Assembly: GCA_030264375.1 (NCBI GenBank)
Contig: JASCQW010000139.1
Coordinates: 17,589,996-17,650,228 of the forward strand
Origin: Carcharhinus longimanus
Taxonomy: Eukaryota
Direction: 5' to 3'
Length of the DNA stretch: 60,233 bases
In this document: positions 21,302-60,233 of the stretch, piece after piece
How positions within the stretch are numbered: the first letter of the stretch is position 1
Layout: every line of letters starts with the position of its first letter
Notes under the pieces: model-generated
The model's database searches: none
The model's input: the letters and a program-made list of their open reading frames with translations, nothing else
What the model was told of the DNA's origin: nothing
Translations under genes and position numbers: made by a program

Positions 21302-21359
21302 CTGAGCTCTAATTTCTCATTCCGAAAGCCATTCTAGCAACCTCTTCTGAGCTTCAGGA

Positions 21360-34026: not shown

Positions 34027-34189
34027 AAATAGGTACAAACAGTACTGCTAATTAATTTTGCTGCGATATTCAGCAAGGCTGTTGCTAAATTTAATCCACA
34101 TAGGGAAAAACAATGCTCTCCTGTAATAAGATGTATTCTGTATAGATTTCTGAGCATGCTTCAAAAAGTAATATGACTTTGAGACAAGA

Positions 34190-34898: not shown

Positions 34899-35199
34899 GA
34901 CACGGGCAGAGCTCAATGCCTGTGGAAATACAGCCAAATTACTAACTCTGAAAGTTAACCTAATCTATTCCACCAAAGTCGCTCAATTCAGAAAAAGAAG
35001 GTTTTAAAGGAAGATATTCCATGATTTCCTTCAATGTACAAAAATTTAAACAATGAGTTAACAATCCCTTTGCATGGTGATCCACATTCCTGTGGGAAGT
35101 CTGCAGTAACCTCAACTATACAACAATTTACAACTGTACACTGTCTTGAACATAGTAAACTGCCCCCAAAACACTTCACAGGCAAATGTGACCCCAAGT

Positions 35200-35700
35200 A
35201 TCTTCAGACAGCAGAAAATGTGGCCAAAGGCTTTGTCAAAGTGGTAGGTTTTAATGATCATCTTGGAAGGAAGAAAGGAGCTTAGAGAAGGAATTCAAAA
35301 ATGGGGACCCAAACAGTTAAAGGCACACATCAATGGGGACGGAAAGAAATTGGGAACGCACAATAGACAAGTGAAGAAACACGACTCAGAACTGGGGCAG
35401 GAAGAGATTATAGAAGTAGGGTGACGATGGGGAAAATTCAAGTATAAAGGAGAAGTTTAAATTTCAGATGTTGCTCGATTAGGTCAGTGGACACATGGGT
35501 GACAGATCAGATGGTGCAAGTGGGGACAGCGGCAAGACATGATGCAAGTGGGGATGGCGGCAGCAGATTTCTGGATGAGCGCAAGTGTACAGATAATGGA
35601 AGATGGGAAGCTGGTTGTGAGAGCATTGGAATAGTTGAATTTAGAAGTAACAACGTGATGGCTGAGGACTTCAGCAGCACACATATTGAAGTGGAGTGAA
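35200..35700 (-). mobile_element. L2-like LINE relic
   Basis: Minus strand HHVVTSKFNYSNAL...LALIQKSAAAI (SRLDYCN / LQ.IQN.AAR-like). Confidence 0.6.
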
Positions 35701-35711
35701 GACTCAAGACG

Positions 35712-36950: not shown

Positions 36951-39800
36951 CCTGGGACTCATTTTCGGGATGGAAGTGCTATTGCAAGGTCAGCATTTAA
37001 TATCAATCCCTAATTCTGCTGGAAAAGGTGATGGTTCCAGAATTTTGTCCCAGCAAAGATGAAAGCATGGTGACACATTTCCAAGCGAGTGTGGGGTGTG
37101 ACATGGAAGAAAACTTGCAGATGGTGATGTTCCCTTGCATCTACTGTCCCTAATTTCTTTAGGTGGCAGAGGTTGCAAGTTTGGAAGGTTCTGTCAAAGG
37201 TGGTGTGACAAATTGCTGATGTATCACGTAGACAGCAGCACACTGATGATGAAGGGAGTGAATGCCTAATGTGATGAATAGGGTGCCAAGCAAGCCAGGC
37301 TGATTGGTCCTGGATGATGCCAATCTTCATGAGTTCCATCACACACCTGATTTGTGCCTTGTATATGGTGGAAAGGGAATTAGGAGACAAGTTACTCAAA
37401 TACCCATCCTCTGAGCTGCTCATGTAACCACAGAATTTATGTGCCTTGTCTAATGGCGATGAGTGATGTTACGGAAGTCTTGATGGGGCAGATATGGTTC
37501 AGCATCTAATAGGAGACCAAATTTGCTCAGCCTCAGACAGTAACCAAGAAAAGTGATATAACTGGTACTAAGGAAGAGAGATTTTGGCAGGCGCCAGAAA
37601 AAAAAAACAGCTTCAGTCTTCTCAAATATTAGACTGGAGGAAAGCATTTGCTTGATGGACAAAAAACTTGATAAATCACAGGCAGTGGAAGGGTAGAGGG
37701 GTGATGATGAAGTACAGCTGGGTATTATGTGTAAATGTGGAACCTGATGGGTTTTTGAGAGTCAGCACGTTAATGGGAAGTAGTGGACAGGACAAGGGAG
37801 CCCTTGAGGGGGACGGGATGAAACTATGGCACCTGTGGAGGAACAAGGAAAGGGAACAGGAGATTTTCTGGCAACGTGTGGATCAATAAGAATGGATCAA
37901 GATATGGGCAATCCTTTTCACTTAATTCTTGCAATGTATAACAATAAAATTGAAATCAAATTACACAATTTTTCATTAGTTTTAATAATTTTAGTTCCTT
38001 CATTCATTTTAATAATTTCCAACTACAATTTGTAACTTCTCTAAAAGATGATCAAATTAATGCCACAAATCCCTAACCCCCTTTCTCCCAAGTACTAAAA
38101 CACAATAATTAGGTCCGCTTTTATTAATAGCTTACTGATACCACTGATGGCCATGCCTCCAGTTGCCCAGACCCCAAGCTCTGGAATTCCTTCCCCACAC
38201 TTCACCTCGCTACGTCACTTTCCTCCTTTAAAGATGCTCCTTAAAACCTTCCTCTTTGACCAAGCTTTTTGATATCTGACTTAATGTCTTCTCATGTGGC
38301 TTGGTGCCATAAATGAGTTTTTAAATGTCCATTGAAGTACTTTGGGTCATTTCAAGGCACTTTACAAGTTATTACAGACACCACAGTCAGTCACAGGCAT
38401 TATTTGCAGCATTTCAGTTCAAAATGCCAAGCTCATTTCTTGAGATACAAATACAATGGCTATGCAGTCAAAACATATTCAAAATGAGCATCTATTTAGC
38501 GCAAAAATGCTAACATGATTTAACAGGATAAGTATTCAAATGCAGTAAATCTTAATCAGATCAATTTTAAAATTAGATTGCAGAAATCCATTAGGTTTAC
38601 ATTCCAATCTACATACTTGTGTGGAGTTACTTTTTAATTTCCTTTAAATGCGAGAAATACGCCTGCAATGTCATGATTTTTCACAAATTCAATAAGCAAG
38701 CCTCAACTGGAAAAAGGCATGAATAGAAATATCTTTCAACTACTTCCTTGACAAAGCTTCACTAAATAATTAGACATTTAATACTTTAAAAAATATATGA
38801 ACATACAATGGGAGTGACAGTATGTACGCCTGCATAAAATGAGAGTAGAATAAGGCCAAAAAGCTGTCTGAACAGGTGTTGCAGTCTATCATGCAAACCC
38901 AGATGACACATCTGAAAGGGTAACCTAAATGCAATAAAAAAAATACCCAAAGGATAACAGATGGCCAAGCAGCAAAAAACAACAGTAGCTGAATCAAGGG
39001 CCTGCAAAGAGATCAAAAACCATAATAATATCAGAGCTATTGCTGCCTTTGTATTCACAAGCTACTTTGAAATGCATGCACATACTGCTAGTATTTATCA
39101 CTGACATATTGGTACAGTCAAGCTGCTATAAGGATGGAACTTCTTACAAATGACAAGTGAAAGGGGCAATCACAAACTAGAGATGTTAAAGCAGAAAGCA
39201 CAAATGTGATTTGCATGGAGGAAATACAGGGTACTTTGCAGGATCCAGCACGCGGTATGTAACTATACTTTTGGTAGCAAACATAAATCAGTTGAGATTT
39301 CACACCTCAATGATTTCTAGAAATCATCAACCAGATATTTTTACAAAAATATGCAGGTATTCAATAATGATGTTTAAATAAACATTTATGCATTAAAAGG
39401 TAAAGAAATGTTTACTTTTAGAAGTGACAATTGGTAATGATTTCCAGTTCTTTTCAACTGCTATTTATGATAAAATGCTAAAAGAAACCCTGAGCTAAAT
39501 GAACATACTGAGAATACTATGCAAAATTTCAATATGATTGATCATGCTCAGAGCTATTCAAGTAGGTAACTTAATCAAGCAACAATACATTTTCAACAGT
39601 CAGTTGACTTGTCCAATACAATTCTAGTGGTAAGTCATCTGATTGAAGACAATTTGGCTATAGTTACACTTTCCTTAGTCGAGAGAATTTGCATCAATGT
39701 CTATCAAATTTCTACATGACCAATTCTCTGCTCCTTTCTCCATTAATACAGAACTATAAATTAACCAGTATGAAGTCATTTGGTTGTAAAAAAAACTATA

Positions 39801-40119
39801 GTATTGCTGAAAAAAGTGTACACACCTGTTTCAGCCAACCAAAATAAGGGACAGCCATTTGCTGGTTCATTCCACATGGAACTGCCTTGACCAGAATCGA
39901 GTTGCCTGGTTTCCATTTCAACAATGCTTGGCAGTTAATTGCCAGTCACCATCAATTGGTACATTCTCCTCGACAACAAATCTACCAGAGTCCACTTGCC
40001 AACCAATCAGCACCCTCTTACATAGTACAAGGTCATTGTTTCCCCACTGATATTTGTGCAATTGTCCCAATAAGTGCAAGATGAAACGCTTTGACAAAAT
40101 GTCTTTTTCAACAAAATAC
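39801..40119. mobile_element. Non-autonomous element with inverted ends and one decayed hammerhead-like end
   Basis: gtattgctgaaaaaag ... ctttttcaacaaaatac; right end ttgtc-ccaataa-gtgcaagat-gaaa-cgcttt-gacaa; related to 44876-45490. Confidence 0.55.
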
Positions 40120-40679
40120 AAAATGAATCTTGACCCAGAGACAATTTGTAATGTCCATTAATACAATGGCCCTAAAACTTGTTCATTTCTAGATTGCACT
40201 GGATACCAGAAGTGTCATTCACAACCCAGAACCTTACAGGAGACCCTTCAACCCATTCTACATGTAACAACTTTTTGAAAGAACCATCAAGTACCATCCC
40301 CTATTTCTCCAAAGCCTTGCAATTTTTTTCCTTTTCAAATATTTATACAACTTTCTTTTGAAAGTTACTCATACCCTTTCAGGCAACATATTACTGGACA
40401 CAACTCTATATGTGAAAAAAATCTAGTCTCATTTTTGTTCTTTTGTTGAGTATTTGAAAGATGCCCTCGTGTTACTAATCCCATCTGTTAGTGAAAAGTA
40501 TTTCTCTGCACTTAATTCATCATAATTAAGACAATCGATTAAATCTTTGCTTGAACAGCTCCACTCCAAAGAGAACAATTCCATCAATGGTCATCACCTA
40601 ATAGAACAGGGTACCAATTTGTGTCAGAGCATACAAACAGAAGAATGCACCAACAGATGAAGCTAGAGATTGCAAAAGG

Positions 40680-42905
40680 ACAGAATTAAAAGCTCGCTTT
40701 CTGAATATGCACAGCATTCATAACAAAACAGATGAATTGTTAGCGCAGACAGAAAGAAATATGATAACTGTTAGGGATATGGTTGCAATGAGACCAATAT
40801 TGAAGGGTATGAGACACTTTGAAGAAACAGGAAACTACAAAAGGGCAATGCCCTTAATCCAGATTGTCATTAGAACTGCAGAAAGTGGTGACCTTAGCTT
40901 GAAAAGAAAGACAGAGTCAGTTTGGGTAGAGCTAAGAAATAGGAAAAGCAGGAAGTCAATTGTGGGAATAGTTTATAGACCCAAACGTAAGACAAAGTAT
41001 TCAGAAATAAATAAATGGGACATATAGGAAAGGTACTACAATATTCATGGGTGACTTTAATCTACATGGAGATTGGGTAAAATCAGATTGGCAAATGTAT
41101 CCAAGACAATCTCTTAGAACAGTACATGGAAGAGCCAAGAGAACAGCTATTCTCGACCTAGTAATGTGCAATGAGACAGGATTAATCAATAGCCTCATGG
41201 TAAAGGAGCCTCTAGGCTATAGTGATCATAACATGCTTAATTTCTCATTCAATTTAAAGGGTAGAAGTGAGTGTACGAGGCACAGATGGTTAAAGCGAAC
41301 TGGAAAATTAGGTTAAAAACAGTAGAGACGCAGTGGCAGATTTATAAGCGAGAAAGAAAGATTCTTATCATCCACGACCTACGGATTGTACCAAATTAAA
41401 AGAAACATTGTACAAATCTGAAAATATTAGTGATAGATCAGCAGATTGGACAGATTTTAAGAACCAAAGACTAACAAAAAGCGGAGGAGGAAATAGTACA
41501 AAAAAAGCCAGTTAATAATATAAAAATAGACAGGAAGAGTTTCTACAAGCATTTAAATAGGAAAACTAAAGCTAGTCTTGATCCTCTAGAGAGAGACTTG
41601 GGGAATTGATAGAAAACAAGGGAACAGCAAAGGCGTTAACAGACATTTTATCTGTCTTCACTGTGGGAGACTGAGAAAAATTCCCAAAGATGCTCAGAAG
41701 TCAAATGATGGAGAGAGGAACCTATCACCATCACCAGGGAGAAGATGCTGGAAAAACTATTAGACCTAAATGTTGATAAGTACCCAGGACAGATGGCCTA
41801 CCTCATAGGGTCTTAAAGGAAATGGCTGTAGATATTGCTCAATATCTTCTAAAATTCCTTAGATTCTGGAAGGGTCCAAGTGGGTTGGAAAATAGTAAAT
41901 TAACACCCTTGTTCAAGAAAAGCAGAAGACAAAAACAGGAAATTATAGGCCAGCTAGCCTAACATCTGTCATAAGAAATTTCTAGAATGCATTATTCAGG
42001 AAGTTATAACAGGAACAGGCAGAATCACTGTTTAATGAAAGAGAAACTGCATTAACTAATTTATTAGAGTGATGAAGTAACAAGCAACCTGGATGAAGAG
42101 GAACATATAGATATGGTGTGGTACATTTGGTTTTCCAAAAGTCATTTGATAAGGTATCAAAAGATTACTTCATAAGATAGCACACGGTATAACCTATTAG
42201 CATGGATTAAAAATTAACTAACAGGAAGCTGATTGTAGGGATAAATGCATCATTTTTAGGTTGGCAAGTCGTAACTGGTGGAGTGCCACAAATGAGTACT
42301 TGGTCTTAATTACAATCCATACCATTGATTTGGATGAAGGGACTAAATGTATGATAGTTAAATATGGCAAGTTAGGTCAGAAAATAAGCTGTCAAACAGA
42401 GGGAGGGAGTCTTCAAACATACAGAATGTTGGCATTTATTGCAAGGGCAATGGAATATAAAAGTGGGGAAGTTTTATTGTAACTGTACAAGGCATTGTTG
42501 AAGCCAGATCTGTAGTACTGAGCACAGTTTTGGTTTCCTTATTTGAAAAAAGGGATATATTTGCTTTTTTAGTAGTACAGAGAAAGTTCACTTGACTCAT
42601 TCCTGAGACAAAAGGCTTATCTTAAGAAAGGTGGAACAGGTTAGGCCTATACCCACTGGAGAATAAGAAGTGGTTTCATTGAAATATAAAAGATCCTAAG
42701 GAGGCTCAATTAGGTGGTATGTTTCCTCAAGGAGGAGACTATATAATACCTTTGAATACGAGCTCTCCCTTTTAAAACGGAGATGAGAAGGCTTTTTTCT
42801 CAGGTCATTAAAATAGCGAATTCTCCCCCCCAGAAAGCTGCAGAGGCTGGGTCATTGAATTTATTCAAGGCTGAATTGGACAGAGTTTTGATAGATAAGG
42901 GAGTT
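40680..42905 (+). mobile_element. Decayed near-complete CR1-type ORF2 (APE endonuclease plus RT)
   Basis: SIHNKTDEL, SVWVELRN...VGIVYRP, MGDFN, AILDLVMCNE...LGYSDHNM, GNYRPASLTSV, MLAFIARAMEYKSGEVLL in colinear order with frameshifts. Confidence 0.9.
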
Positions 42906-44875
42906 GGCGGGGGGGGGTGCGGGTGTGGAGGAGAAGAGAAAGAGACATACAAGGAGAAGTCCTTCAGCCTTGGTAACATTCTAGTAATCTAATTCTCTGC
43001 ACACATTCAAGGCTCTCTTCATCTCTTGCAACAGCATCATATGAATGCTGCAGTAGAACATTGTCCATCGAACCTCAAGGATTACAACTGCCAATCAGAT
43101 TGATCATTTTAATGCGTCATTACATCACCTTCTTACTTGCCACCATTCTGTACTTGTGGTTACTCTACACTACCCTTCACACACAACTAATATTTATATT
43201 CTGGCAGATGGATAAAAAAATGGACATTTAAAATGTCTTTTAAAACAAAACCTGGTACAATGTACTCAAATGAAGGAGTGATCACTCCCTCTAAATGTAA
43301 ACAAGTTAACTGACACAGCAATTACATTTCATAAAGCAGGAGAATAATCCAAGCATTAGGTTTAACAAATTGCTTGGATTTATTATCAAATCTACTATAT
43401 TCCCAGCAGTACAAATTCAGGGTGAGTTATACTGCTAATTAATACACCTGTATCAACAAAGGCTTGCGGCCTATCTGGTATAGGTGTATTTAGTTCACAA
43501 GCATCTAACTTGACACCTACTCAATACCTTCCCAGAGATGGATCAATTTTATGCAGATGGCAGTTTGGGAAGTCAGTGTACATGAACCAAACAATGGTGA
43601 AATCTTGGTTGATTAGAGTCAAAACTGTCCTCAGTTCCTTCACTTTAAAGATAAGCATTTGGACAGATTCAGCTGAATCAAACAACCTGCTCTGAACGAC
43701 TATGTACAAACTACTACGGTTTTACTATAATATTTATTAAAAATCTAGGTCTCTCAGCATTCGTTTGTATTGATCAAAAGCCCTGTGAAGCCAAAATCAA
43801 AATAAAAGCAGAGCATGTAACCAATTTGATGACTTGAATTTTTTGCACAAGCAAAGCATTAAAACGTTTCCTGTAGCATAATTGGGGTAATTACTGGTGA
43901 CCACATTTCCACTGGGAAAATATACATTAGTTCATTCCATGATGAGCCACATCACTCATGTAATGATCTGATTCATGCCTAGCAAAGCAGCCAAATCTGA
44001 TTGAAAGATGTTTCGCAAGATTTCAGCGCAACTATCCCTCGCCCACATTCCCACCATTGCTTACTTGACGCATGATTTTTCATAGCAAGTGGTCAATTAA
44101 TAACAGCTATGATAGTCTCAATCCTCCATGCTCTAGAAACTGATCAATTTGCCACAAAACCCTACTATTTTGAGCATGCAAGAGTCACATTTCTGCTGAG
44201 TTGTTCTCAACATTCTCCAAGAGGTTAATGTTTAACTCCAGGAGATCTGAGGGCACCAATTACCAATGGTTCAGATAAAGGCGATTCTGATGGATCTATG
44301 TAACCAAAAATGACAATGGCATAGGTGAGAGTCTGTGGCTGAATCCTTGAGGAAAAGGAGCTTGAATTCTTCCTGAGCAAGATTAGAATCTTGAAGGACT
44401 TTGTGCCTGAAATTTAATGCCATATGCCAATTGGGCTGTTTGATAAATCCAAAAGATGCATCATGTTGTATATGCTTTTTAATGTGTGGTTTGCCCATTA
44501 TTCATGCTTAACAACTAAAAAAAAACAACAAATTCAAGTCATAAAAAATTAAATATTGTTCATGGGATTTGTTCATTAAATTTGGCTCTTTCGCTTCACT
44601 GATCTCCACAGGGATCATGACATGATAAGGTGCAGCAACCTGGCATGACATTTTTCTTCTCTAATCCAGTGCCGTAAATATTGATTACATCACCTCTTCA
44701 GCTTTGCCAGCTTATATCAGTTAACAGTACGAGCTGCAAGCTTAGGAACTTCTTGTTCTGTATGGCTTAAAATTAGTATTTCAGTAATAGGTAGGCAGAT
44801 AAACTGCCAGGTTGGGTAGGGGCAGTTGTGAGCTGCCATGGGAACCTAACTGAAGTCCTTTAAAGCATAAGCATT

Positions 44876-45490
44876 TTGAATATTGCTAAAGAGAGTGACA
44901 TGTTGTTGAAGTTTTTAGCCTTGCGCTCATCAGGACAAATGCAAGAATGTCAAATTTCAATTGATCACCATAACTTATACCACAGGAGAAAATGGTGTTG
45001 GACTCTGGTTGGCTGAGGTAGTTTCCAGTTGCTTTTTCCATGGAAATATGGGCTCTGCAAGTTTCCAGGTAATTCAAAAAGGTGCAAGGCTTGAACATAT
45101 TCCTTTTGTTTGCAGAGAATGCATATCTCTCTTCTAGCAAGCTTAAATAAGCCATGTTACAATCTCAGCTGATCTTTGCTTTGGGTCTAGCAAGCATGGG
45201 CTGGTTGAATATGGTGTGCACGCTACCTGTTATGAATAACCAAAAGGAACATGCTGTTGCATTCAATCAGCCAATCGCTGGAACAAATAAACACCTACTT
45301 GTTAGATTTGATTTAGCAATCAGGCTGCACTTGCCTGAACAATTCTGAGTGCACAAATAGCTATGCTAATTACACATTTAAAGTAATCAGCACACTTTGT
45401 TAACGACTGTTTCAAATTTGGCAGTGTTTGTCCTGATGGGTACGAGACAAAGCACTTCGGTAACATGTCTCTTTAATGAGCAATATTCAA
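44876..45490. mobile_element. 615-bp non-autonomous element with ~64-bp imperfect terminal inverted repeats
   Basis: ttgaatattgct (44876-44887) and agcaatattcaa (45479-45490) are a perfect inverted pair; similarity extends inward to catcaggacaaa / tttgtcctgatg. Confidence 0.75.
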
Positions 45491-45580
45491 GTCTGTACTA
45501 AGTGAGAACCAGTATCTATAAAATTAATAATTTGAGAAACGAAGAATGATGAATTTGCAGAACTGATTCCTTCTGCACTA

Positions 45581-46150
45581 TTAGAAACATAGAAAAACTA
45601 CAGCACAAACAGGCCCTTCGGCCCACAAGTTGCACCAAACATGTCCTTACCTCCTAGGCTTACCTATAACCCTCTAAGTTCCATATACTTATCCAAAAGT
45701 CGCTTAAAAAACCTTACTGAATCCACCTCCACCACCACTGCCGACAGCCAATTCCATGCACCCACCATCCTCAGAGAAAAACGTATCTCTGACACCTCCT
45801 CTGTACCTAATCCCCAACACCCTAAACCTGTGTCCTCTAGTGCCAACAATTTCAGCCCTGGGAAAATGCCTCTGAGAATCCACTCGATCAACACCTCTCA
45901 TCATCTTATACACCTCTATCAGGTCACCCCTNNNNNNNNNNNNNNNNNNNNNNNNNNNNNNNNNNNNNNNNNNNNNNNNNNNNNNNNNNNGCTCGAGGGG
46001 CTAGATGGCCTACTCCTGCTCCTATTTCTTATGTTCTTATGAGGTGACCAGAACTGAGCAGAGTACTCTAAGTGGGGTCTGACCAGGGTCTTATACAGTT
46101 GCACATTATCTCCTGACTCCTAGACTCAATTCCGCGATTGATGAATGCAA
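45581..46150 (-). mobile_element. Young CR1-type 3' end, with a second CR1 tail (+) at 45991-46041 next to a gap
   Basis: MQLYKTLVRPHLEYSAQFWSPH and YKMMRGVDRVDSQRHFP...TRGHRFRV; tail tagaaacatagaaa; same family as 2459-2740. Confidence 0.85.
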
Positions 46151-46611
46151 ATTGTCATCTTGTTTTGCATTTGACATTCCCAGGATGCACACAATGTCAG
46201 GAGTGTAAAATTCTCTGTTCTCATGGACAGAACAAATCCAATGTACTGCTCAGTTACTCAGTAACTTCCATTATTTTGATACTCGCATTTTTTGCCAAAA
46301 AAGACCACAGTACTGAAAGAATAGGCAGCTTTTTGTAATGATAATATGCCAAATTTTGCCAAGAATTTGCTAGTTTCGAATCTTCAAGTGTATGTCCACA
46401 ACTGTCAGTCAGCCATGTAGTATGCCAGTCTTCTATGCATTCCAGCCTCTTTTCAACAAATTTCTGTATCTCCTCCTAGATGGTGGAAGCTTCTAGGAGA
46501 TTATTTGTTTGTCTATGTTATTCCTTGCCTTGAACACTTGCTTGCATTCAGCTATCACTTTAGTGCTCTAGTTGCTGGGGCCTAGTCAATAGAGAATTTT
46601 GCTTCACATAT

Positions 46612-46830
46612 AGATGTTGGCATTAGACTGGGGTGGGCACAGTAATGGTCTCACAACATCAGATTTATTTGGTACCACAAGCTTTCAGACCACAGATCCT
46701 TCATCAGGTGAGTGGAGAGTTGGGTCCACAAACAGGGCATTTATAGACACAGACTTAAATGCAAGATAATGGTTGGAATGTGAGTCTTTACAGGTAATCA
46801 AGTCTTTACAGACCATGTGAGTGGAGAAAG
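46612..46830 (-). mobile_element. Penelope-like terminal repeat with hammerhead motif
   Basis: Same family as the 12227, 13606, 31372 and 54552 copies; includes the upstream part with the hammerhead. Confidence 0.7.
46675..46711 (-). ncRNA. Minimal type I hammerhead ribozyme motif (sense to GIT1)
   Basis: Minus strand UCAC CUGAUGA A GGA-ucugugg-UCU GAAA GC UU GUGG. Confidence 0.6.
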
Positions 46831-46844
46831 TGACAAGCAGAGAC

Positions 46845-47713
46845 CCAAGTGAGCAATAGTGATAGGCGACTTGCTAGCAAGAGGCACAGACAGGTGCTTC
46901 TACGGCCACGATCAAGACTCCAGGATGGTGTGTTGCCTCTCTGGTGCCAGGGTCAAGGATGTCTCTAAGCAGTTGCAGGACATTAAGCACGAGGGGTGAG
47001 CAGCCAGAGATCATTGTGTACATTGATACCTATGGGTAGGAAAAGGGATGAGGTCCTTATGCATGGAGAGAGAGTTAGGCAGAAGGCTAAAGTGCAGGAC
47101 CTCACGGGTAATAGTTTCTGGACTACTCCTGGTGCCATGTGCTAATAAGTAGGAATAGGAAGATTAGACATTGACAAGGCCACACTTGGGAGATACTGTG
47201 TACAGTTCCCTATTATAGAAAAGATACTAAACTAGAAAGAGTGCAGAAAAGATTTACTAGGATGGTACTGGGACTTGATGGTTTGAGTTAAAGGAGAGGC
47301 TGGATTGACTGGGACTTTTATCCCTGGAGCGTAGCAGGAGTGATCTTGTAGAGGTCTATAAAATGATGAGTGGCATAGATAAGGTAGATAGTCAACATCT
47401 TTTCCCAACGCCAGGTGAGTCTAAAACTAGAGGGCATAGGTTTATGGTGAGATGGGAGGTACAAAAGGGTCCAGATGGGGCAATTTTTCACTCAGAGGGT
47501 GGTGAGTTTCTGGAATGAGTTGCCAAAGGTAGTAGCAGAGGCAGGTACAATTTTGTCTTTTAAAAAGCATTTGGACAATTACATGAGTAAGATGGGTATA
47601 GAGGGATATGGGCCAAATGGAGGCAACTGGGACTAGCTTACTTTAAAAAAAAGAGCAGTATGGACAAGTTGGGCTGAAGGGCCTGTTTCTATGCTGTAAG
47701 TCTCTACGACTAT
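46845..47713 (+). mobile_element. CR1-type LINE: ORF1 esterase relic joined directly to ORF2 C-terminus and 3' UTR
   Basis: RAIVIGDLLARGTDRCFYGHDQDSRMVCCLSGARVKDVS (SGNH esterase of CR1 ORF1), then from ~47170 the same 3' end as 34380-34898. Confidence 0.85.
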
Positions 47714-47717
47714 GATC

Positions 47718-48115
47718 TTGCAGTCATGCCCATCTGTCCATCCTTGGCATGCTGCAGTGCTTCAGCGAAGCCTGGCACAAGCTGAGGTAGCAACATCTCA
47801 TCTTCTAGTTGAGACCATTGCAGCTCGAGACATGAGTTCGGCGACTTTAGATTTTGACCTTTCTCCTCCATATTAAACTAGCTTTTTAAAAAATATTCCA
47901 TACACGTACTGCCTCAATGCAAAACACCCTCTCCCTCTCTCAAATCTGGCCATGTGTCAATTGTTCTTAAAGTCACTACTTTATGTTGCAGTTTCTTTCG
48001 CCATAACCTTCTCCTTTAGCTCTGACAAAGGGTCTGTGATGCAAAATGTTAGCAGTTTCTCTCGGGAAAGATGCTGATAAACCTGCTGAGCTTTTTCAAC
48101 ATCCTCTGTTCTTGT
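47718..48115 (+). mobile_element. Decayed Penelope-like 3' end (GIY-YIG C-terminus plus terminus)
   Basis: SHAHLSILGMLQCFSEAWHKL..QHLIF relic, then agct-ctgacaa-agggtc...aaaa-tgtt-agc (decayed hammerhead) and agatgctg..acctgctgag. Confidence 0.65.
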
Positions 48116-50126
48116 ATTAGCTGCCACAAGATTGCGATGCTATGACTTTAGTAATATTTTTCAGTAGAGTAAATAGTCTGCCCTACATTATTGGGCAAGG
48201 TGTTATATCAACACGCTGACTCACTGGGCAACCTGGTGGCAGGTGTCAAAGTTACTGTACATACCTTGAAAAAGGGCATTAGAATCAGAAAACAAAATGT
48301 AGACAAACATTGCTTTCTTTAATCAGCTGCTGCACAAGTCACTATTACTAATATGATCACAAAGCCACTTTTGTAAATTGATTGACAGGTGCACAATCAG
48401 TTCAGGATTACTGTATGGTATGTCAGTGTTCTCTACTCTGCGCCATTTAATAAATGTGTGCCCACATAGCAGCTGCTTTAGTGAAGGCATGATATCAGTG
48501 CAGAATTCTGAAATACAGCACCTTTCACTGACTGATGTGATGATGGATTTCAATTAAATTTTTCATCCATTCAATATGCAAAACTGTCACCCGCCTTGGT
48601 CCCATTTAATTGTTTACTGTAATATTTGGAATGCAAGAGGCATGATCAACTGGAAAAAAATTCCCATCACTCACTAGTGCTGCAGCTGAGTGTCCACTGA
48701 CATTTAGCTGTGAAAGGATAATTTAGGTCAGAATTTCAACTTCTACTGATCTGCATTTATTTCTGACAGACCTAGCTAAGGTTGATAAATTGAGTTTCTA
48801 AAATAAAAAGAACGTTCATTTTTTTCCCTAAAATCTAGCCCGCTCACCAGTTTAGTAAATCCTTCTAGGCAGAAAAACGTATTACCCTTACTCACCTGAA
48901 ACCATCAAGTTAAAATAAACAGGAAAGAAAAGGATTTTCATGCCATTGCAAGTGTCAACTGCAAATTTATTAACCAATTACAATGCCAATCAAGCTAGGC
49001 TACCACAGTTCCGAAATATCAGCATGTAATTGAGCCACAAGGATGTAAAACATTCAGGTTTAATTTTTACTGTGTGCTGTGCTAGTTGAAACATGTATGT
49101 TTGGGGCACTACTGGTCTAACATGGTAAGAACAATTATAATCAACCATGTCCAGAGCTCCTGTCTCAATCTCGATCAAGCTGATGCCACTGGAAAACAAT
49201 GGTGGAAACCCTAACAACAGTTTCATTACCGAATCTAAACAGTGAATGAAAAGAAATAACTTATTCACTACCCAGCCACTGGTTTGCGGCCCTGATAAAT
49301 GGGGAGGGTTAGGGGAAGAAAGGGCATCCAGCTGTAAGATACATTGTCAAATCCAAAAGTTACGGCAGATATATGAATAGAACTAGGGAAGTTTGATCGA
49401 CCAGCATTGTGGTAATCCCATCTATCATGGGGGAAAGCCATGACCCAAAACATTTCACAGCTAAGTACTCTTGAAGTGAAATCACTTCTGTAGAAAGGCA
49501 GCAACTAATTTACACAATGATATTTTATAAATAGTAATAATGACCAGATAATCTAAATTTCAAGTGATGGTGATGGAAGGGTCAGTATTGCCCAAGACAA
49601 CAAGAGCTCCCTCATTTCTCTTCAAAATAGGGTAATGTGGTCTTTTACATCACAGAGCAGACGGAGATTCAGTTTAACATGTGATTCAAACATCTCAGGA
49701 CTGTATTGCATCATTGCAAGACAAATGAAAAAGTACCATGAAAATAAGTTATTTAGATACTGTAGCAAGTTGATGGGCTATTCCAAAAAAGTTTTGCCTA
49801 TGTCTTCCTAATATTTAACTCTTCCTCCTTCCTTCCCCTCATCCATTGATGATCTGATATTTCTTTGTGCAGCCAAAATTGTGTAGCCAACTCTAACATA
49901 AGGGGCTCTTCTGGATGGCACACTGACATTAATGACAGAACAATTATTAACAAAGTAAATGGCACTTCACAACACAAATGTCACATCGTTTTGTTTTGGA
50001 AAATTTAGGTCAAAGTAACACATCCACCATCACCATTGATATGATCAGTAAAATTCTAGAGAACTGCACTTTCAAGTAGCAACAAACATTGATGTAAAGC
50101 CCCCCCGGAACAAGGAAAATTAAATT

Positions 50127-50157
50127 GGTGGTGGTGGTGGTGATGGTGGGGGGTGGG
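50127..50157 (+). repeat. (TGG)n / G-rich microsatellite
   Basis: tggtggtggtggtggtgatggtggggggtggg. Confidence 0.8.
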
Positions 50158-51753
50158 AGCTATGGATTTGATATATTTATAAATCAAAAGGTATGGAGAC
50201 TCGACTGGAAAATTTGAAAATACTAATGATTCCATTCTGTTGTGTATATCCTTCCAAATGCAGCTACACCCTTATTAGCTTAATAGCTACACATTGTAGC
50301 AAAGTAATATCAAACAATTATAAAAGGAGACAATACAAAAATGTAAATTAAACCAATTAAGTGAATGTTGGATTGGACATGATATATCGCTTTTCAAACA
50401 GAGTTCGACTCAGCTCAGTTAGTAGAACAGTCCTCTAAGGCTCAAATTTCAAGTTTCGCACCTGAATTTCAGTGGATAATCTAGCCTGGCCTATGGCACA
50501 ATACTAAGGAACTGCCTAATCAAAGATGCTATCCTTCAGATGATAAAATGGGGAAAACACTATTAAAGACATTCAAAAAGCAGTTGCAATTCTCCTAATT
50601 CCTTGGTCACTACACTGCCCTCAGACAAAAAAAAAATTTGTACTCAAGAAATTGGCTAACGGGAAATGGGGAATTGATCAAAACACTTCCAACAAACTAG
50701 CCCTGCTTGTGTTTTTTTCAGTTGTGGAGTACTGTGCCTCATATGGTTACTCTTGAGCCATTAACACAAAATTAATACTGAACTCAATTAATTCTGGAGG
50801 ATCACCACAGGAATTTTGAAACAGACTTCCAACCTGCCTTACAGGGATTACAATTCAGGTAACAAATTACCAGTCAGCTGGAATAGAACTGACTTCATGC
50901 TGAACTATATCACCAGGCTTATTAACATGGACACCAACCGACAAACTTAAGTTTGACCAGCGAATAGGTGACAGTTGCTAGCAGACGTTAATTGTGAGCT
51001 GCATAACCGATCAGAAAACATAACAGTGCCAGCATCCTCCTGAAGCTAGAAAGAAAGATGCACACCATATTCTGCTAGATCGCAAATTTACCAGTTGGTT
51101 AGTTTTCACAATTTTTCTAATGCAGCTGACTTCTTTACAAATCCAACCTTAATAGGCATAAAGCCCAAAAAATCTACGGTGTGTACATACCTTCTTTATA
51201 ATGGGAAAACCAATACATGGAACCTTATGTCCTAGATTTCCAATACAAAGTGCTGGATCTCTTACCACATGCTGCTTAAAACAAGGCTTCATGTAAATTA
51301 CTGTGTATAGAGGCATGCAACCTTAAGGCTGATTTTCCAGCTAAGGGCACTTGGCACCACATCCCTTCTTTGCCATAACCACTTCCCTTAGTCATGAAAC
51401 ACCTACAACGTGGCCCTGGATTTCTCAAAGGCTTAAGAAGGTCTTCTGTAAAATTTCATAGCAAATCTGCAAACAAGAGAACATTTCATGCAAGAAATTT
51501 CTTATTAGCCCCATCATAGCATGTTACAGTGTTCATCCAAATTAGATTAACAGTGCAATATATATAATACAAGAAACTTGTCACCATTGTTTTTCCAGCT
51601 GACTGATCAACATCCAGAAAGCACATTGCTAGGGCTACCTAATGAAGTGTTCATGTATGTGAAGCACATTGGCTGTAAATGCAACGTTTCTTGCAATATG
51701 GGGTGTCCATTTTTTTTTATTATGGGCAACAATATTGTTAAAAGTTTTATATT

Positions 51754-53114
51754 TTTCCTCATTTCTATTCCACAAAATAAGAATTGTCAATGAAAGGTTG
51801 TTAGCAACTAGTAGAATGGCCTTGTTTTTTTTTGCTTGTCTTGCAATTTTTGATTATCTTGCTGGATTTCTGCACACTCCCTTTTGCAGTTCTGTTTTGA
51901 GTACATGTATCCTGCTATTTCCAACCAAATGGGAAGTCTGTCCTTTACCTTTTAGTGAATGCTTTAGTGGAATTTTTATTCATTTGCTGTGGAGTGGAAG
52001 GTGAGGGTCCGACTCTCAACAATTGTGTTTTAGATGGTGACTGTCTTAATTTTTTCATTCTGTTCAAAAATCATCATCTTTGTGACTAAACTGGCATGGT
52101 GGTATTCCAATGCCCTAATCCATAGTTATGGAAGAATGAGTCTGCTTTCACAGTTTACAAACAGCAAGTTTCAATATTTGTTGTGCCAGAGGGAGGAAGA
52201 AAACACTAACAGTTCCCCACTGAGAAGAGGGAGAAGTGAACTTAAATTAATTTATAAGTGAAATCATAATCTGGAAATTTTTGTGAAAACTAACCATGAA
52301 GGCAGGCATGCAAAGTCACTGAGGGGCAAATTTAAAAAAGTGACATCAATACTTTTTCAATTTTAGAAAACATGTGAAGTAGTGGAACAGATTCACAAAA
52401 TAGCAACAATTGCTCACAATCTTGGATTAACAAAAGAGCTCCAAGAATTTGATAATTTTTCCATAGGAAATGATTTCAATGTGCATTGAAACCAGAACAA
52501 AACAATCCATTTTGTTTGACAAGTTGTTTTCCATTTTCACAGGTCATCTTGCAATGCTCAAAGTGATGATNNNNNNNNNNNNNNNNNNNNNNNNNNNNNN
52601 NNNNNNNNNNNNNNNNNNNNNNNNNNNNNNNNNNNTCTCCCTCTTCTCAGTGGGGAACTATTAGTGTTTTCTTCCTCCCTCTGGCACAACAAATATTGAA
52701 ACTTGCTGTTTGTAAACTGTGAAAACAGACTCTTTCTTCCATAATTATGGATTAGGGCAATGGAATACCACCATGCCAGTTTAGTCACAAAGATGGTGAT
52801 TTTTAAACAGAATGAAAAAGTTAAGACATCACCATCTAAAACACAATTGTTGAGAGTCAGATCCCCACTCTCCACACCACAGCAATGAATCAAGATTCCA
52901 CTAAAGCATTTACTAAAAGGTAAAGGACAGACTTCCCTTTTGGTTGGAAATAGCAGGATACATTTATTCAAAACACAACTGCAAAAGGGAGTGTGCACAA
53001 GTCAGCAAGATAATCAAAAATTGCAAGACAAGCGGAAAAATATCAAGGCCATTCTACTTGTTGCTAACAACCTTTCATTGACAATTCCTGTTTTGTAGAA
53101 TAGAAATGAGGAAA
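51754..53114. repeat. Long inverted repeat: arms 51754-52234 and 52636-53114
   Basis: Arms align as reverse complements along their whole length with scattered substitutions and small indels; the right arm's inner end abuts an N gap (52571-52635). Confidence 0.95.
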
Positions 53115-54551
53115 TTTTTGGTAGACTGTGGAATTATGCCAGGCAAGCCTCACTGTGATCCAAACTTCTTGACCTCATGCTATCTGAAAGCTAGTTAGGA
53201 TATGAATTATATTGCTCAAAATTCAAATAGTTATGACAGAAATGATTTGAATGATGCTTTGATACAATTTTGAATTAATTTAAATGGAGTACAGCAAACG
53301 ATGCATTTGAAACTCACTGATTTAGTTAGAAACAAAGATGGTTCTGAAAATTGAAACACAATTAGCACATTAGTTAGTTACTTGAAACTGGGAAAAAATA
53401 AGCTTGGGCTCTTGGCTGGCTTCATCCACTTTTGAAGTATTTTCTGGAGATAGCATTAGCTGGTCTTAGCAGCCAATCCTATGGATACTGTTCTTAAATG
53501 AAGAGTTGACCTTTTAAATGGAGTAAGGTGAAATTAACAAGCTCTCCGGCAGTAGAACTACTCACTCACTGCCCCATATCTTCCTTGCTAATTAAGTGAT
53601 CTTAGCCAGGAAGGTAGCAGGGGGTGTTACATTACTGTATTGCTCTTGGGCTGAGGCGATAAAAGTCAGGATTCTCACACCATCCTTATTCACTCATGCA
53701 GAAAAGTGCATGTGTTTGGAAACTGAGATGTCTAATCTGGTTCAACTGTGCACCCTTCCTGGGAAAGCTAGTTGGCCAGGTTCAAATCTGAAAACTGGTC
53801 ACTTGGAAGAACAAGAGACAGGGGTCAATACCTTCAATTCAAGAGATTACTGAAGAGGATAAAACTAAAGGAGCCTCAAAATACTACCCAAGACAAAAAA
53901 AGTGATCAGGGCGTTGGGACTGCAGATAAGATTGCACATAAATCATTTTTTTTCCAGAACAGCCAGCCCAGGAGCTCAAGAATGCTAAACCAGAAAAGAA
54001 AATCAGATAGTCCAATGGGAACTAATTCTGCAGCTCATTTCCATGGAGACTGTCTTTCCTCAGGAGCCTGTTCGTATGCGAATCAAGCTTGGCATTGGGC
54101 CAAGAGCCAGACCCAGGACAATAGCTAACCAGGGGCAACTCAACAACATTTCTGGGCTAGAAATGTAGTCTGGGATTTGGGCAGGTGAGGGAGTTCAGTG
54201 TGTCAAGCCAGCCAGGAAAGGACAAGCTTAGGCACCTGCCAGAGTTTTGCTGTGGCACGGAGCACAAGAAATTTAAGAAGACCACCACACAGCTGGTCAA
54301 GCCAGCTCCACCTTTCAAAACAATCATGGATGATCTTGGACTTAAATTTCACGTTTCTACCAGCTCCCCATGTTCCTTGATTCTCTGAAAGATCAAATTT
54401 TTGTCTCAGCTTTAAAAGTATTCAAGAATGAATGTGGCAAATGCAACCCACTGAGATAGAGAATTCCAAAGATCCACAATCTTTTAAGTCAAGTAATTTC
54501 TCCTAATCTCAGCTGTAAATGACTGGCCCTTTATCCTGAGAATGTGTCTGA

Positions 54552-54795
54552 GGCCAGAACTCTCCATTCACCTGACGAAGGGTCTAACCCGAAAGCTAGT
54601 GAGTATATTATCAAATAAATANNNNNNNNNNNNNNNNNNNNNNNNNNNNNNNNNNNNNNNNNNNNNNNNNNNNNNNNNNNNNNNNNNNNNNNNNNNNNNN
54701 NNNNNNNNNNNNNNNNNNNNNTAGGTTGGACTAAAACCTGGTGTTGTCAGACTTTTTACTTTGTTTACGCCAGTCCAACGCCGGCATACCCACAT
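54552..54795 (+). mobile_element. Young Penelope-like terminal repeat with hammerhead, nested in CR1
   Basis: The last ~70 nt differ from 31516-31585 by one base; flanked on both sides by colinear minus-strand CR1 sequence. Confidence 0.8.
54568..54602 (+). ncRNA. Minimal type I hammerhead ribozyme motif (antisense to GIT1)
   Basis: UCAC CUGACGA A GGG-ucuaa-CCC GAAA GC UA GUGA: full catalytic core, 4-bp stem I, 3-bp stem II, palindromic AGCU stem III. Confidence 0.75.
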
Positions 54796-54894
54796 CTTAA
54801 ATTTCCTGACCAGTGGAAACAATTTCTCAGCATCGAGTCCCTTCAGCATCTGGTTTGTTTCAATGAGATTGCCTCTTATTTATTTTGCAAATGC

Positions 54895-55985
54895 AAAGTC
54901 CCTAAGCCAAGCAGCGTTTTCCAGTTCGGCTGTGTTGATTACAGATAGGCCTTTGTTGAACCTGTGGATTGGACACTCTTCTTTGTGGTGCATAACTTGC
55001 TTTCTCTCCAGGCACATAAGGGGCTGGCAGTAATGCCCAATCTATGGAAGTTGGCCAAACAAGGACGGTGGTCAATCTTGAACATGTTTAGGGTGGATCA
55101 CTCTTTCCTTGGAAGGTTGAGCAAGGTAGCTGTTGGATTGAGTTTGAAACCAGGTTCTTGCTCGTCAGTTCCAATGATTCCCATTCATTTGTCCAGGTGG
55201 AATTTGCGTTGAAGTCCTGCACAGGAGGAATTTCCAAATCAGTCTTCTTGATAGCAGTCATTGCCTTAGGTGAGCTGAATAGATCAGCATGAAGTGATAA
55301 GTAGGGGTAAACTTTTTCTCTAATTTTGTTACAAGTCGACTGACAGAGGGAATGATGTTTGCCAGGAAAAGCAGCTAATGGTGTGGCGCTGAGCGTAGCA
55401 TTCCAGAAATGATACATATGGTAGCATTCAGCAGGATGTCAATTTCATGTGTGCATAATGATTTTGACCAAACAGGGGTGCAGTAATCAGCTACTGAGTA
55501 TGAGTCCACCAGTGCTGAAGTTTGGACAGTGGTGGTAGCAGCACCCCACTTCGAGCTGGCTAGTTTGGCAATCAAGTTGTTTCGGACTTTACCTTGTCTG
55601 CAGTTGTTTTTAGGTACTCCAAGAAGGTCGGTGTCCTATCTAGGGTCACTCAGAGGTATGCTTGCATTGTGGTGGTGCTTTAATTTGCAGCCATTCATTT
55701 GATGTTGAGCTCTTTATTGACTGTGGCATTGTGAAGATGGAAAATGCTGGATACTGTATTTACAGGGCTTGGTTTGCGTCACCATGTAGTGCAGTATCGA
55801 TCAGGTTTTAACAAGTCCTTTTTCAGGATGTGGTCCAAGGTGTTGAAATTGAGGGCTTGAGTTGCAAGCAGACATCATCAGCAGTTGTGAATTTTTGGGT
55901 AGTTATTTTTGGAAAATAATTTTTGTACAAGTTGAACAGGGTTGGAGCCAATACTGAGCATTGGGGCAGTCCACTTGTTTGGAGA
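54895..55985 (-). mobile_element. Vingi/Ingi-like (I group) LINE 3' half, decayed
   Basis: SGLPQCSVLAPTLFNLY...ADDVCL; IAKLASSKWGAATTTVQTSAL..YSVADYCTPVW; C-terminal LNLPRKE..TLN and SPLCA...MHH...ECP zinc-knuckle relic. Confidence 0.7.
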
Positions 55986-57574
55986 TCACAACAGCACAAA
56001 TTATTCTAGATTCGGTCATACCAAAGTTGTGCACTTTGGGAGCAAGATTTCTTTATTCTTGTATTTGCAATAAAGGCCAATATGCCATTTGCCTTCCTAA
56101 TTGCCTGCTGTACCCACATGCTAACTTCCTGCAATTCTTGTACAAGTATACCCAAGTCTTTCTGAACATCAACGGTTATAAGTTACACTCCTTTTTAAAA
56201 CTACTTTGCTTTTCCATTCTTACAAAAAAACGTGAGCAGCACAGGAATGGTGCTGTTCAGGGCAGGGACTGTTTGCATTGTTCTTGACCCCAAAATAAAA
56301 AATGCATCAAGGCCCCAGAGAAGGGAGAGATCAGCTGAAACCCGATTGTTTGATTTAAAACCAGACTAATGACCTCCTCAAGTTGGCCTCGTGCTGCCTG
56401 TGTTCAGCCAACTCAATTTTGGAATGAGTAGGCTTCAGTTAGATGTTAGGACCCATTTATGCATATGAAAATATCTTAACCGACTTCAGGCAGAAACACT
56501 TTATCTGCCTATATCAATGTTTTGGATAGCACACTTCCAGCATTTAATAAGCATGCTCATCCTGCCCACAGAGTACTTTGGTGCCCATTTTGAGTCTGAA
56601 AAATGGCCTGGAATCATCAAATTTCTAAGTCATAATTACAAATATTGCATTTGTAATTTGCAAAATGTACCGAGCTCAACAAATGATTTGATAAAGAGGT
56701 CAAACAGTAACTTTTCAGTTTTGTATTAATCTTCATTTTCTTAAACTGGACTTTAAAGTGTTTCAGTGTAATTGTTATCAGGGCTGCCTCAACATTCTAG
56801 CTTTAATAAAGTTATTTCTCAATTAGGTGAGCACAATCAAAACATGATTAAAATGCAAATATAACCTGACACCTTTCTTCCTGCAATAACCTGAAATGCA
56901 TCTTGCATCTAACACAAGGGCCTTTCACATCGTCAGAAAATCCTTAAGTTAATAGATGGAACTTTTTTGAAGTATAGCTCGTTTTGTAGGAAAAGGTGGC
57001 AGTTGATTTGTGCAGCGCAAGATGCCAATAAACAGCAAGTAAATGACTAGTAATCAGATTTTATAGTTGTTTAAGTGGCTAACTAAGGGTACGTACCGCT
57101 ACCAAAATAAAGTCTGGACCAGACGTGTATTTGATCAAAACTGGGAGCCTCAAAACTAGAGTTTAGCAGATAGTTGCTATTACATTGTGTCACTAATTAA
57201 AATATCCTGGACAAACAGATAATAGGAACCTGCCAGAGTTTAAAGCACTGTATGGCAAACTAGATACTGACGGTGGTTAAAGTCATGATATTGAACCTTT
57301 AACGATAAAATCATGGATAATGCTCATACGAGTTGAAGGTGTTAGTTGCCTCTTCACAAATATGGGTGTAGCCTACTCAGGGAAAATAATGCAATTCAAA
57401 ATATATCTTAATTTAAGAAAATAAGTTGATTTCTAGCTTACAGAAGACGACAAATTGTCAGAAGGTTTGTCAGAATTTTAATTTCCCTTACAATCAATGC
57501 TATGCATGTTTTTAAGGTTTGGGTACACCATTACATTGTTTGTCAGAAGAGTAAGAGCACAATCCTGTAACGTG

Positions 57575-57740
57575 GATGCTGAAATTGGAAAGAAAGTTGC
57601 AAAATCTCAGCAGGTCTGGCAGTATCTGTGGAGAGAGGAAGAGAATGAATGTTTCAAGTCAAATATGACTCAATTCAATTTCTCCCTCTGCAGGCACTGC
57701 CAGACGTGCTGAGATTTTCCAGCACTTTCAGTTTTTATTT
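57575..57740. mobile_element. Fold-back mini-element made from the second Penelope-like terminus
   Basis: 57601-57623 and 57696-57718 are reverse complements at 22/23 positions. Confidence 0.65.
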
Positions 57741-58097
57741 TTGTCAAAAGAGAAAGGTTATTGCAGAAATAACACATAGTAGAGAAAGCTACAAAAACTA
57801 ATCAAAATATATTTTTAAATGTCAAACTTCTTGACTGTTGAGATTAGAAGTGAAAAACAAACTGGTACATAAAGTTAACCTATTTCAATCATTTACATTT
57901 CAACATCACATTACAACCATTAACCTTAGAACAACCACTAGCCCAAATCATTGGGTGTCGCAGACTAAACACAATTTTGATTGTGATAAAGAGTAGGCTA
58001 GTCAGTGCAAATTTAATTTTCAGCATGCCCAAAAACTGAATTTACCACCTCTAGTCCAGCTGCAACATTCCAATAGTGACTGAGCAATCCAGTAACA

Positions 58098-58810
58098 TGA
58101 GAAACAACAGGATTAGGCTTTTTAGCTCTTCAAGTTTATTCCACCATTCAATGAGATCATGGTTGATCTGCAATCTAATGCCACATACTCACCTTTGCCC
58201 AATATATCTTAACACCATTGGTTATTTCAGATTTAAAATTAATTGACCTAGCATCAATCGTCATTTGTAAAAAATTTCAAACTTCAAAACTTGTGTTGGG
58301 ACTTTTCTACTTTCACTCACAAAAAGTCTGGCTCTAATGTTTGGTATGCTTCCAATGTCCTAGACTCCCTGACCACTGAAATAGTTTCTTTCAATCTACT
58401 TCATCTATTGCCCTTAACATCTTAAAAACTTTGGATCAACATGCTAACCTTCTGAATTATAGAAAATATAACCCCAATTTGTGCAATGTCTCCTTGCAAT
58501 TTAACCCTTGGAGTCTTGTTATAATTACGTTAAATCAATTTTGCGCTCCTTGCAAAACCAAAATAACCTAAGACCTGGTGCCCAGACTGCTCAGAGTAAC
58601 TGCGGGAGTAGTCCAACCAAGACTTTGCACAAAGCAGCACAACTTCTACTCCCTTGTATTCTAACCCTCTAACTTTAGAGGTCAGCATCACATTAAACTT
58701 TGATTTTTTTAAATATCTGTTCATGCTATTTTAATTATCTATGTACCTAGATTCCAGAGTCTGTTTTGAACCACCAGTATTCCTAAGTTTTTCCCCTATT
58801 TACAAAATAT
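58098..58810 (-). mobile_element. Decayed CR1-type 3' end
   Basis: RGLEYKGVEVVL relic plus 3' UTR ccaccattcaatgagatcatggttgatctg. Confidence 0.7.
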
Positions 58811-59794
58811 GCACTCTTAAGAAATTATTCTTAGGCCTCTACCATGGATTTTCCATACACTGATGCTGGAACCTGCATACATTGATACACTCCCTTATGC
58901 CCAACTATTATTGAACTTTAGGAAGTACAATATACCTCAGTACTCAGGCAAGTGGTATTAGGATATGGAAGACCAGAAACACAGGAAGCATTAGACAAAG
59001 ATATTAACACATTGATGTTACTTTGGCAACTTGCTTTATTTTTAGTGATTAAGCAAACCTGGAAAGTAATACACACCAAGTTAATGGCTTCCAGCTATTG
59101 CACCTCCCAGCAGGCTGAACAATTAACACAGGACTCTTGGAAAATAGCTATTACTGAACTCAAGAATGTATCAATAAATCTGTTGTTTGTTAGGGTATCA
59201 TTTCCCATTTGACACAGTCTGCAATGGAGGGTATTGACCTAAAGGCAAGAGCATTGGGAACTAACAACAAATAAAATTCTATAGAAAATGGTACTAATTG
59301 ATGCCCATGGTAAAATCCTGAGTACGCAGAGGAAAACTCACGCAAACTGTTCAAAGTCAGTCACTATATCAGATTAGGAGAATATAGCTGAATTTCAGGT
59401 GGTAGCTGAGAAACTACAAATAAGTTGGGGGGGGGATATTACCCAAGTGACCGGAAGAAGTTACATGGACAAAATGAAATACAACACCTTAGAAGAACAA
59501 TCAGGAAGCCACATGAGTGATCACGGAATGATATTGAAACAGCAAAATTGTGAAGTTGAACAGTGCCAAGAGCGTAAGTAAATTAATTGTTCAATATGTC
59601 TAATCACTGCAGAGCAGCGATTAAAGAAATCAGAAAGCCATTCACCCAATGGTGAAGAATCCAAGATGTACAAAGGTATGTTTAGGCCTCGGCCCAAGTG
59701 TCTGATTAGTATCTGCAATCCTGCTTAGCAAAACAACAAACACATTCAAATTTCAAAAACGTTGTATAGAGGATAAATAATCTCTTGTATCAGT

Positions 59795-60233
59795 GCCCCC
59801 CCCGCCCTCCTCTAATCCTGCTATTCTTTCTAAGCAGGAAGAATCTCTCTACCTCCACCCTATCTATCCCCTTCATTGTCTTATATGTCTCTATAAGATG
59901 CCCCCTCAGCCTTCTAAACTCCAACGAGTACAGACCCAGTCTATTTGATTTCTCTTCATAGGCTAAGCCCCTCATCTCCGGTATCAGCTTAGTGAACCTT
60001 CTCTGCACTCCCTCCACGGCCAATATATCCTTCCGCAAGTGCGGCAACCAAAACGGCACACAGTACTCCAGTTGCAGCCTCACCAGTACCCTATACAGTT
60101 GCAGCAAGACCTCCCTGCTTTTATATTCTATCCCCCTCGCTATAAAGGCCAGCATACCATTTGCCTTCTTGATCACCTGCTGCACCTGCAGACTGGGTTT
60201 TTGCGACTCATGCACAAGGACCCCCAGGTCCCT
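59795..60233 (-). mobile_element. Young CR1-type ORF2 C-terminal region, running off the window
   Basis: Open frame QVQQVIKKANGMLAFIARGIEYKSREVLLQLYRVLVR..LEYCV.FW.PHLRKDILAVEGVQRRFTKLIP. Confidence 0.9.

Follow-up and report, generated by a model that had tools for sequence, protein, structure and literature searches.

A juxtaposed splice acceptor and donor in the 72-kb first intron of Carcharhinus longimanus GIT1: a possible recursive splice site, probably a latent look-alike

Introduction

Is the long first intron of GIT1 in the shark Carcharhinus longimanus removed in one step, or stepwise through an AG|GT junction that lies close to its middle? The question was raised by an earlier note on a window of 60,233 nucleotides (the whole stretch of DNA analysed here; GenBank assembly GCA_030264375.1, contig JASCQW010000139.1, positions 17,589,996 to 17,650,228 of the forward strand), which proposed a recursive splice site followed by a 48-nt poison exon (RS exon) on the minus strand. 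Coordinates below are those of the window.

Vertebrate recursive sites with cryptic RS exons have been described in PDE4D, CADM2, ANK3, HS6ST3 and Lsamp (PMC6110456 and PMC8797253) and by Sibley et al. 2015, as presented in PMC5126111 and PMC6224609. In human, 36,870 conserved strong AG|GT sites were counted in 21,202 introns, 342 of them having junction reads and 16 a saw-tooth pattern (PMC6110456). In mouse brain, recursive splicing was found in fewer than 0.06% of 28,382 transcribed long introns; the introns of the saw-tooth class exceed 51 kb and are first or second in their gene, and genes with recursive sites exceed 294 kb, this last figure being descriptive rather than strict (PMC8797253).

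GIT1 and its first intron

The assignment of the host gene to GIT1 holds: the peptide of the exon at 11791-11658 is 100% identical to chondrichthyan GIT1 records, and 21 exons with GT-AG ends, mapped in the window and 400 kb of flanking genome, assemble into an intact frame of 761 amino acids. The gene spans ~177 kb from ATG to stop. Its first intron had been taken to be 48 kb long; it measures 72,494 nt and extends past the window, coding exon 1 being 24 kb from the window's edge. It is the longest intron of the gene, the next one reaching 17.9 kb. Since the coding first exon is upstream of the AG|GT site, a start of GIT1 below position 48842 is excluded. Coding exon 1 sits in a GC-rich region (57% GC, CpG o/e 0.65). 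The parts of the gene that matter here are:

G000:C139:17674332-17674281 (outside the window): GIT1 coding exon 1, 52 nt from the ATG, ending CAG|gtacgt
11792..60233, minus strand: 3' two-thirds of GIT1 intron 1 (whole intron 72,494 nt)
11658..11791, minus strand: GIT1 exon 2, 134 nt, ArfGap domain, with the acceptor of intron 1
2047..2159, minus strand: GIT1 exon 3
1489..1594, minus strand: GIT1 exon 4

Other features of the locus deserve mention. Exon 9 is only 27 nt long (L039:5248-5274) and exon 10 has a tandem CAGTAG acceptor (L039:228, minus strand), which could be the source of one-residue isoform length variants in relatives. Catshark GIT1 records (among P0007, P0149-P0152 and P0164) carry a divergent 31-residue amino terminus; a convincing match to it was not found in this GIT1 locus. 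A 480-nt stretch of the window (51754-52234) has one further copy across an N gap (52636-53114), perhaps an assembly duplicate.

Anatomy of the AG|GT site

The candidate module is composed of the following elements:

48890..48898, minus strand: juxtaposed acceptor/donor CAG|GTGAGT, junction 48896/48895
48898..48958, minus strand: AG-free zone of 61 nt, with a pure pyrimidine run at 48934-48921
48955 (-60), 48916 (-21) or 48910 (-15), minus strand: candidate branch-point-like A
48848..48895, minus strand: putative RS exon, 48 nt, 38% GC, three in-frame stops in phase 1
48842..48850, minus strand: downstream donor CTG|GTGAGC (+48), matrix score 5.6
48669..48677, minus strand: alternative downstream donor CTA|GTGAGT (+221), matrix score 7.5

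The acceptor abuts the donor directly, as had been noted, and the junction divides intron 1, at 49% of its length, into a 5' part of 35,390 nt and a 3' part of 37,104 nt. The second donor (48848/48847) closes the 48-nt exon at 48895-48848 and the phase-1 reading G|GT GAG TAA ends immediately, as the earlier note describes. Weaker donors are found at +4, +10, +124 and +194. The GC content of the putative RS exon is close to that of the downstream intron (38% vs 37%) and below that of the exon 1 coding sequence (65%).

The description of a polypyrimidine tract stands in part. The AG-free zone is real (48958-48898) and its 61 nt are equalled by 3 of the 20 real GIT1 acceptors, but the tract is interrupted, its pure pyrimidine run stopping 22 nt short of the CAG. 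Pyrimidines make up 65% of the last 20 nt before the junction, within the 55-90% of real GIT1 acceptors.

A second AG|GT occurs 630 nt downstream (48225-48305, minus strand), with AAG|GTATGT, a CTAAT branch-like motif, an acceptor score of 4.6 and a donor CCA|GTGAGT 40 nt further on.

Strength of the splice signals

Splice signals were scored with matrices trained on the 20 acceptors and 20 donors of GIT1 only, whose scale differs from that of MaxEntScan. The candidate acceptor scores 7.4, while the real GIT1 acceptors range from 1.5 to 12.1 in leave-one-out scoring, nine of them lower than the candidate; the acceptor is thus only middling. It lacks the recursive-site motif Y5+N0-4YAGGT given in PMC10156609, as do 13 of the 20 real GIT1 acceptors. 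The strong 3' splice site of a vertebrate recursive site is defined by a MaxEnt score of at least 5, and the human sites of PDE4D, CADM2 and ANK3 score 12.5-14.1 on that other scale (table S3 of PMC6110456).

The donor side is stronger. The reconstituted donor CAG|GTGAGT scores 13.5 and agrees with the consensus in 8 of 9 letters, against 5.6 and 7.5 for the donors at +48 and +221 (6 of 9 letters each). Exon 1 closes with CAG; joined to the candidate site in a first step, it would restore this top-scoring donor, which would beat the one at +48. Taken as a whole, the site ranks first among the 271 sense AG|GT sites of GIT1 intron 1 and first among 1,518 minus-strand AG|GT sites in 407 kb; on the plus strand of the same 407 kb, four of 1,573 sites score as high, two of them being duplicates.

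Expectation by chance

The earlier note had warned that such motifs can arise by chance, and the calibration gives substance to that caveat. Simulated sequence of 68 kb (Markov chains of order 2, 4 and 5, with 400 runs for each order) contains at least one site as good with a probability of 0.08-0.11 when the scores are summed and of 0.035-0.05 when both must be matched. The empirical sample, 2.23 Mb of strand sequence, combined the regions of GIT1 and GIT2 with 60 pieces of 10 kb taken at even spacing. It holds six sites as good in the forward direction, the candidate included, vs five when read backwards; the five others, in 2.16 Mb, correspond to a chance of 0.15 per 68 kb (95% CI 0.05-0.31). 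The AG|GT alone is not clearly above chance, an equal site being expected in about 5-30% of such introns.

Genome-wide, the textbook pattern Y12-N-CAG|GTRAGT is matched 48 times and its backwards version 42 times; the module TTYCAG|GTRAGT-N25-55-G|GTRAG, candidate included, has 40 matches and its backwards control 53. These counts may be lower bounds, and a backwards control is imperfect. When 30 of the 40 module loci were compared with 30 taken from the 53 controls, acceptor scores did not differ (medians 1.7 and 1.5; p=0.47 with the candidate left out), each set having two loci that score at least 7.3. Among these 30 module loci the candidate comes second on acceptor score and first on AG-free length.

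The complete layout is rarer. In the 2.23 Mb the candidate is the only site that combines an acceptor of at least 7.4, GTRAGT and a G|GTRAG donor within 250 nt, and the reversed control has none. Of the positions in the intron, 42% have a donor scoring at least 5.6 no further than 250 nt away, and 9% have a G|GTRAG at that range. Multiplying the chance of the AG|GT by that of such a G|GTRAG gives a joint chance of ~0.4-1.3% per such intron, a post hoc figure. This rarity (~1% per intron) keeps recursive use possible, while the finding that the motif is no commoner genome-wide than its backwards controls makes a chance look-alike likelier than a used site.

Some other loci of this survey are of interest. 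When 30 of the 48 genome-wide textbook matches were scored, two AG|GTAAGT sites, at loci L066 and L086, came out strongest, with acceptor scores of 15.9 and 15.7, AG-free zones of 46 and 39 nt and downstream donors at +103 and +82; judged by these features they are better candidates for recursive sites than the one in GIT1. At L022:2634 (plus strand, G000:C139:17392629) an AG|GTGAGA with an acceptor score of 9.9 has consensus-like donors at +17 and +28, and is possibly a microexon or an RS exon of a neighbouring gene.

Repeat context

Like the earlier note, the searches recognised no repeat at the site. The 400 nt around it match a single place in the genome, this one. A profile made of 13 copies of a repeat that bears CAG|GTGAGT detects nothing in 48601-49200 (E up to 100), and self-comparison against 460 kb does not find any repeat in 48040-51753. 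Short repeat pieces near 48710-48750 and 49290-49490 were seen in contigs of relatives. Rfam gave two sub-threshold matches over the whole window, none at the AG|GT site, and a look-alike window was not found in another genome.

The CAG|GTGAGT-bearing repeat is common (window 46634-46769; L068, L074, L078, L081 and others), with 53 profile hits in 660 kb. One of its strands reads CTGATGA, a hairpin and GAAA followed by AATAAA, the other carries CAG|GTGAGT. Ten of the 30 textbook loci scored from across the genome were flagged as copies of it, and its copies in GIT1 have no strand bias (7 of 15 hits, many partial). We take its layout to resemble the hammerhead core of Penelope-like elements, a call that Rfam did not make. 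Elsewhere in the window (57603-57717), a near-perfect hairpin of 115 nt (-63 kcal/mol), with an Rfam mir-3127 match under the gathering score, is probably a small inverted-repeat element.

Conservation

Contigs of two relatives, ~97% identical, cover 48300-49500 in one piece and differ by 27 and 31 substitutions. Among the substitutions listed, none alters either 9-mer, and the chance of an intact 9-mer is 0.70-0.74 each; at such identity the relatives are too close for a kept motif to show selection. The module (48960-48842, 119 nt) has at least 3 substitutions vs 4.0-4.6 expected (P=0.33-0.44), a divergence no lower than that of its flanks, and each of the two relatives lacks one base in the pyrimidine tract. 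An apparent stretch of low divergence at 48663-49011 failed the scan test (P=0.175). Of the six sequencing runs (four studies) listed for 48000-49800, none is of RNA, which weighs neither for nor against use of the site; run X1, which agrees with the window wherever it covers it, lacks a piece over 48885-49004, X4 lacks one over the site, and the listing contains no joints.

The paralog GIT2, with a first intron of ~12 kb, has no counterpart: when the 717 AG|GT sites on the plus strand of its 200-kb region are ranked, the top five all lie outside that intron.

Comparison with known recursive sites

The GIT1 site shares with vertebrate recursive sites its location in the first and longest intron, a reconstituted near-consensus donor stronger than the downstream donor, and a low-GC RS exon with a stop. 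At 72.5 kb and in first position, the intron falls within the mouse saw-tooth range, while the gene, at 177 kb, stays below the length of mouse genes with recursive sites (PMC8797253). The human saw-tooth sites lie in introns of 329 kb median length (PMC6110456), against 72 kb in GIT1. Compared with the classic sites, the GIT1 acceptor is probably weaker.

Two broader classes are also close. The 'putative RS sites' of PMC6110456 have, like the GIT1 site, an AG|GT with an adequate acceptor in a long intron far from annotated exons; that class requires in addition a PhastCons of at least 0.5, and the GIT1 donor is better than the class demands. The RS-like cryptic exons of PMC8797253 are likewise unannotated exons starting with GT in long introns, but for the most part their downstream donor is stronger than the reconstituted one, the reverse of GIT1.

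None of the papers searched links GIT1 to recursive splicing or to a poison exon; the supplements of Sibley et al. 2015 could list the site. GIT1 and GIT2 are absent from the 12 of 15 supplements of PMC6110456 that were searched (for S1, among its first 42,898 rows), and from all four supplements of PMC10156609, whose site table may or may not name genes.

A latent look-alike or a used site?

The explanation that we favour, with some reserve, is that the site is a look-alike, an acceptor/donor pair that is latent and not under selection, such as long AT-rich introns produce by chance. Intron 1 of GIT1 would then be removed mainly in one step. If the spliceosome occasionally picked the candidate AG, the CAG of exon 1 joined to GTGAGT would form a donor stronger than the one at +48, and this rebuilt donor would be spliced on to exon 2 with no trace left in the mRNA. 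A competition between reconstituted and downstream donors is described in PMC6224609 and PMC6110456. Because the rebuilt donor would win over the one at +48, any occasional use would be traceless; a motif spliced without trace would be harmless and hence need not be purged. Against this explanation stand the rank of the site as best of the 271 sense AG|GT, its presence in the first and longest intron, and its position at 49% of the length.

A genuine recursive site with detectable use is the main alternative, and a fairly unlikely one. It would act in two steps: in the first (35.4 kb) the 48-nt exon is defined and joined to exon 1, and in the second (37.1 kb) the rebuilt CAG|GTGAGT outcompetes CTG|GTGAGC and joins exon 2. 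Every sequence-level feature of the sites in PMC6110456 and PMC8797253 is present: a first and longest intron of more than 51 kb, a donor of 13.5 vs 5.6, a low-GC RS exon and an in-frame stop, a combination with the low joint chance given above, and the motif is unchanged among the differences listed for the two relatives. On the other side, the motif classes are unenriched genome-wide, the acceptor is middling, the relatives are too close for the intact 9-mers to weigh much, and rows for GIT1 or GIT2 are absent from the human lists S2 and S3 of PMC6110456. The odds given to recursive use derive from the joint chance and the human base rate in PMC6110456; the midpoint position was left out of them because human saw-tooth sites lie at varied positions in the part of its table S3 that was examined.

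Recursive use of the GIT1 site is thus possible but unsupported. The layout fits the stepwise removal suggested by the earlier note, but the lack of genome-wide enrichment, the middling acceptor and a local divergence that is not lowered speak against it. A site whose saw-tooth use is dominant is improbable.

Two further readings give the junction an ordinary role. In one, CAG|GTGAGT is the donor of an upstream exon, either a cassette or an internal first exon with an in-frame ATG:

48896..48958, minus strand: rival exon of 63 nt, open in phase 1 in this genome

Such an exon would have two in-frame ATGs, and the different amino terminus of catshark GIT1 indicates that other first exons are annotated in relatives. 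Its own acceptor scores only 4.1, however, and in both relatives it is one base shorter, so that 62 nt would shift the frame. We looked at 92 GIT1 proteins of elasmobranch type, 46 of them among the best 120 of 1,471 hits and the other 46 from partial cluster lists, and no insertion was found at this place; 85 have the usual start, six the catshark start and one a start at Met47. For an internal first exon, the upstream composition is not promoter-like (38% GC and CpG o/e 0.19, where exon 1 has 57% and 0.65). This reading is very improbable. Least probable of all, the AG could be the acceptor of a cryptic last exon that ends at an intronic poly(A) signal and is normally suppressed by the adjacent U1 site: sense-strand AATAAA/ATTAAA hexamers do follow at 48761, 48610, 48451 and 48323, but AATAAA occurs 0.85 times per kb in the intron (58 in 68 kb), a density at which downstream hexamers are expected.

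Would inclusion poison the transcript?

The designation of the 48-nt segment as a poison exon is right in that an in-frame stop would precede later junctions, but the stop is close to the start, in a zone of NMD escape as defined in human. Counted along the mRNA, it would fall at codon 20, 57 nt downstream of the ATG, and exon 2 is followed by 19 junctions. Stops less than 150 nt from the start belong to the NMD-escape zone in human data (PMC13043745). By this human rule NMD would be weak at 57 nt from the ATG, which makes "poison exon" doubtful.

The next in-frame ATG after the stop is Met47, preceded by two out-of-frame ATGs. In a product started there, the four zinc-finger cysteines would all be missing, as would Arg39, a residue that we take to have a catalytic role. 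The skate GIT1 record P0164 (XP_032902197.1) starts at Met47.

A more far-reaching scenario, which we consider a long shot, would have a working recursive site born in sharks as intron 1 grew to 72 kb. Occasional inclusion of its exon would bring the stop at 57 nt and escape from NMD, and re-initiation at Met47 could then produce a GIT1 scaffold that lacks the ArfGAP zinc finger. Recursive splicing would in that case extend to the gene of a signalling scaffold, beyond the giant neuronal genes.

Significance

If the GIT1 site were used, it would add one more site to a known mechanism, in a cartilaginous fish and with no known mammalian counterpart, and would bear on the birth of recursive sites during intron growth, a matter of modest interest. 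The calibration is the more reusable result: in this genome a textbook AG|GT, with or without a second donor nearby, is no commoner than its backwards controls. Since AG|GT is not enriched and a common repeat supplies many such junctions, recursive sites called in shark introns from the motif need RNA or deep conservation behind them.
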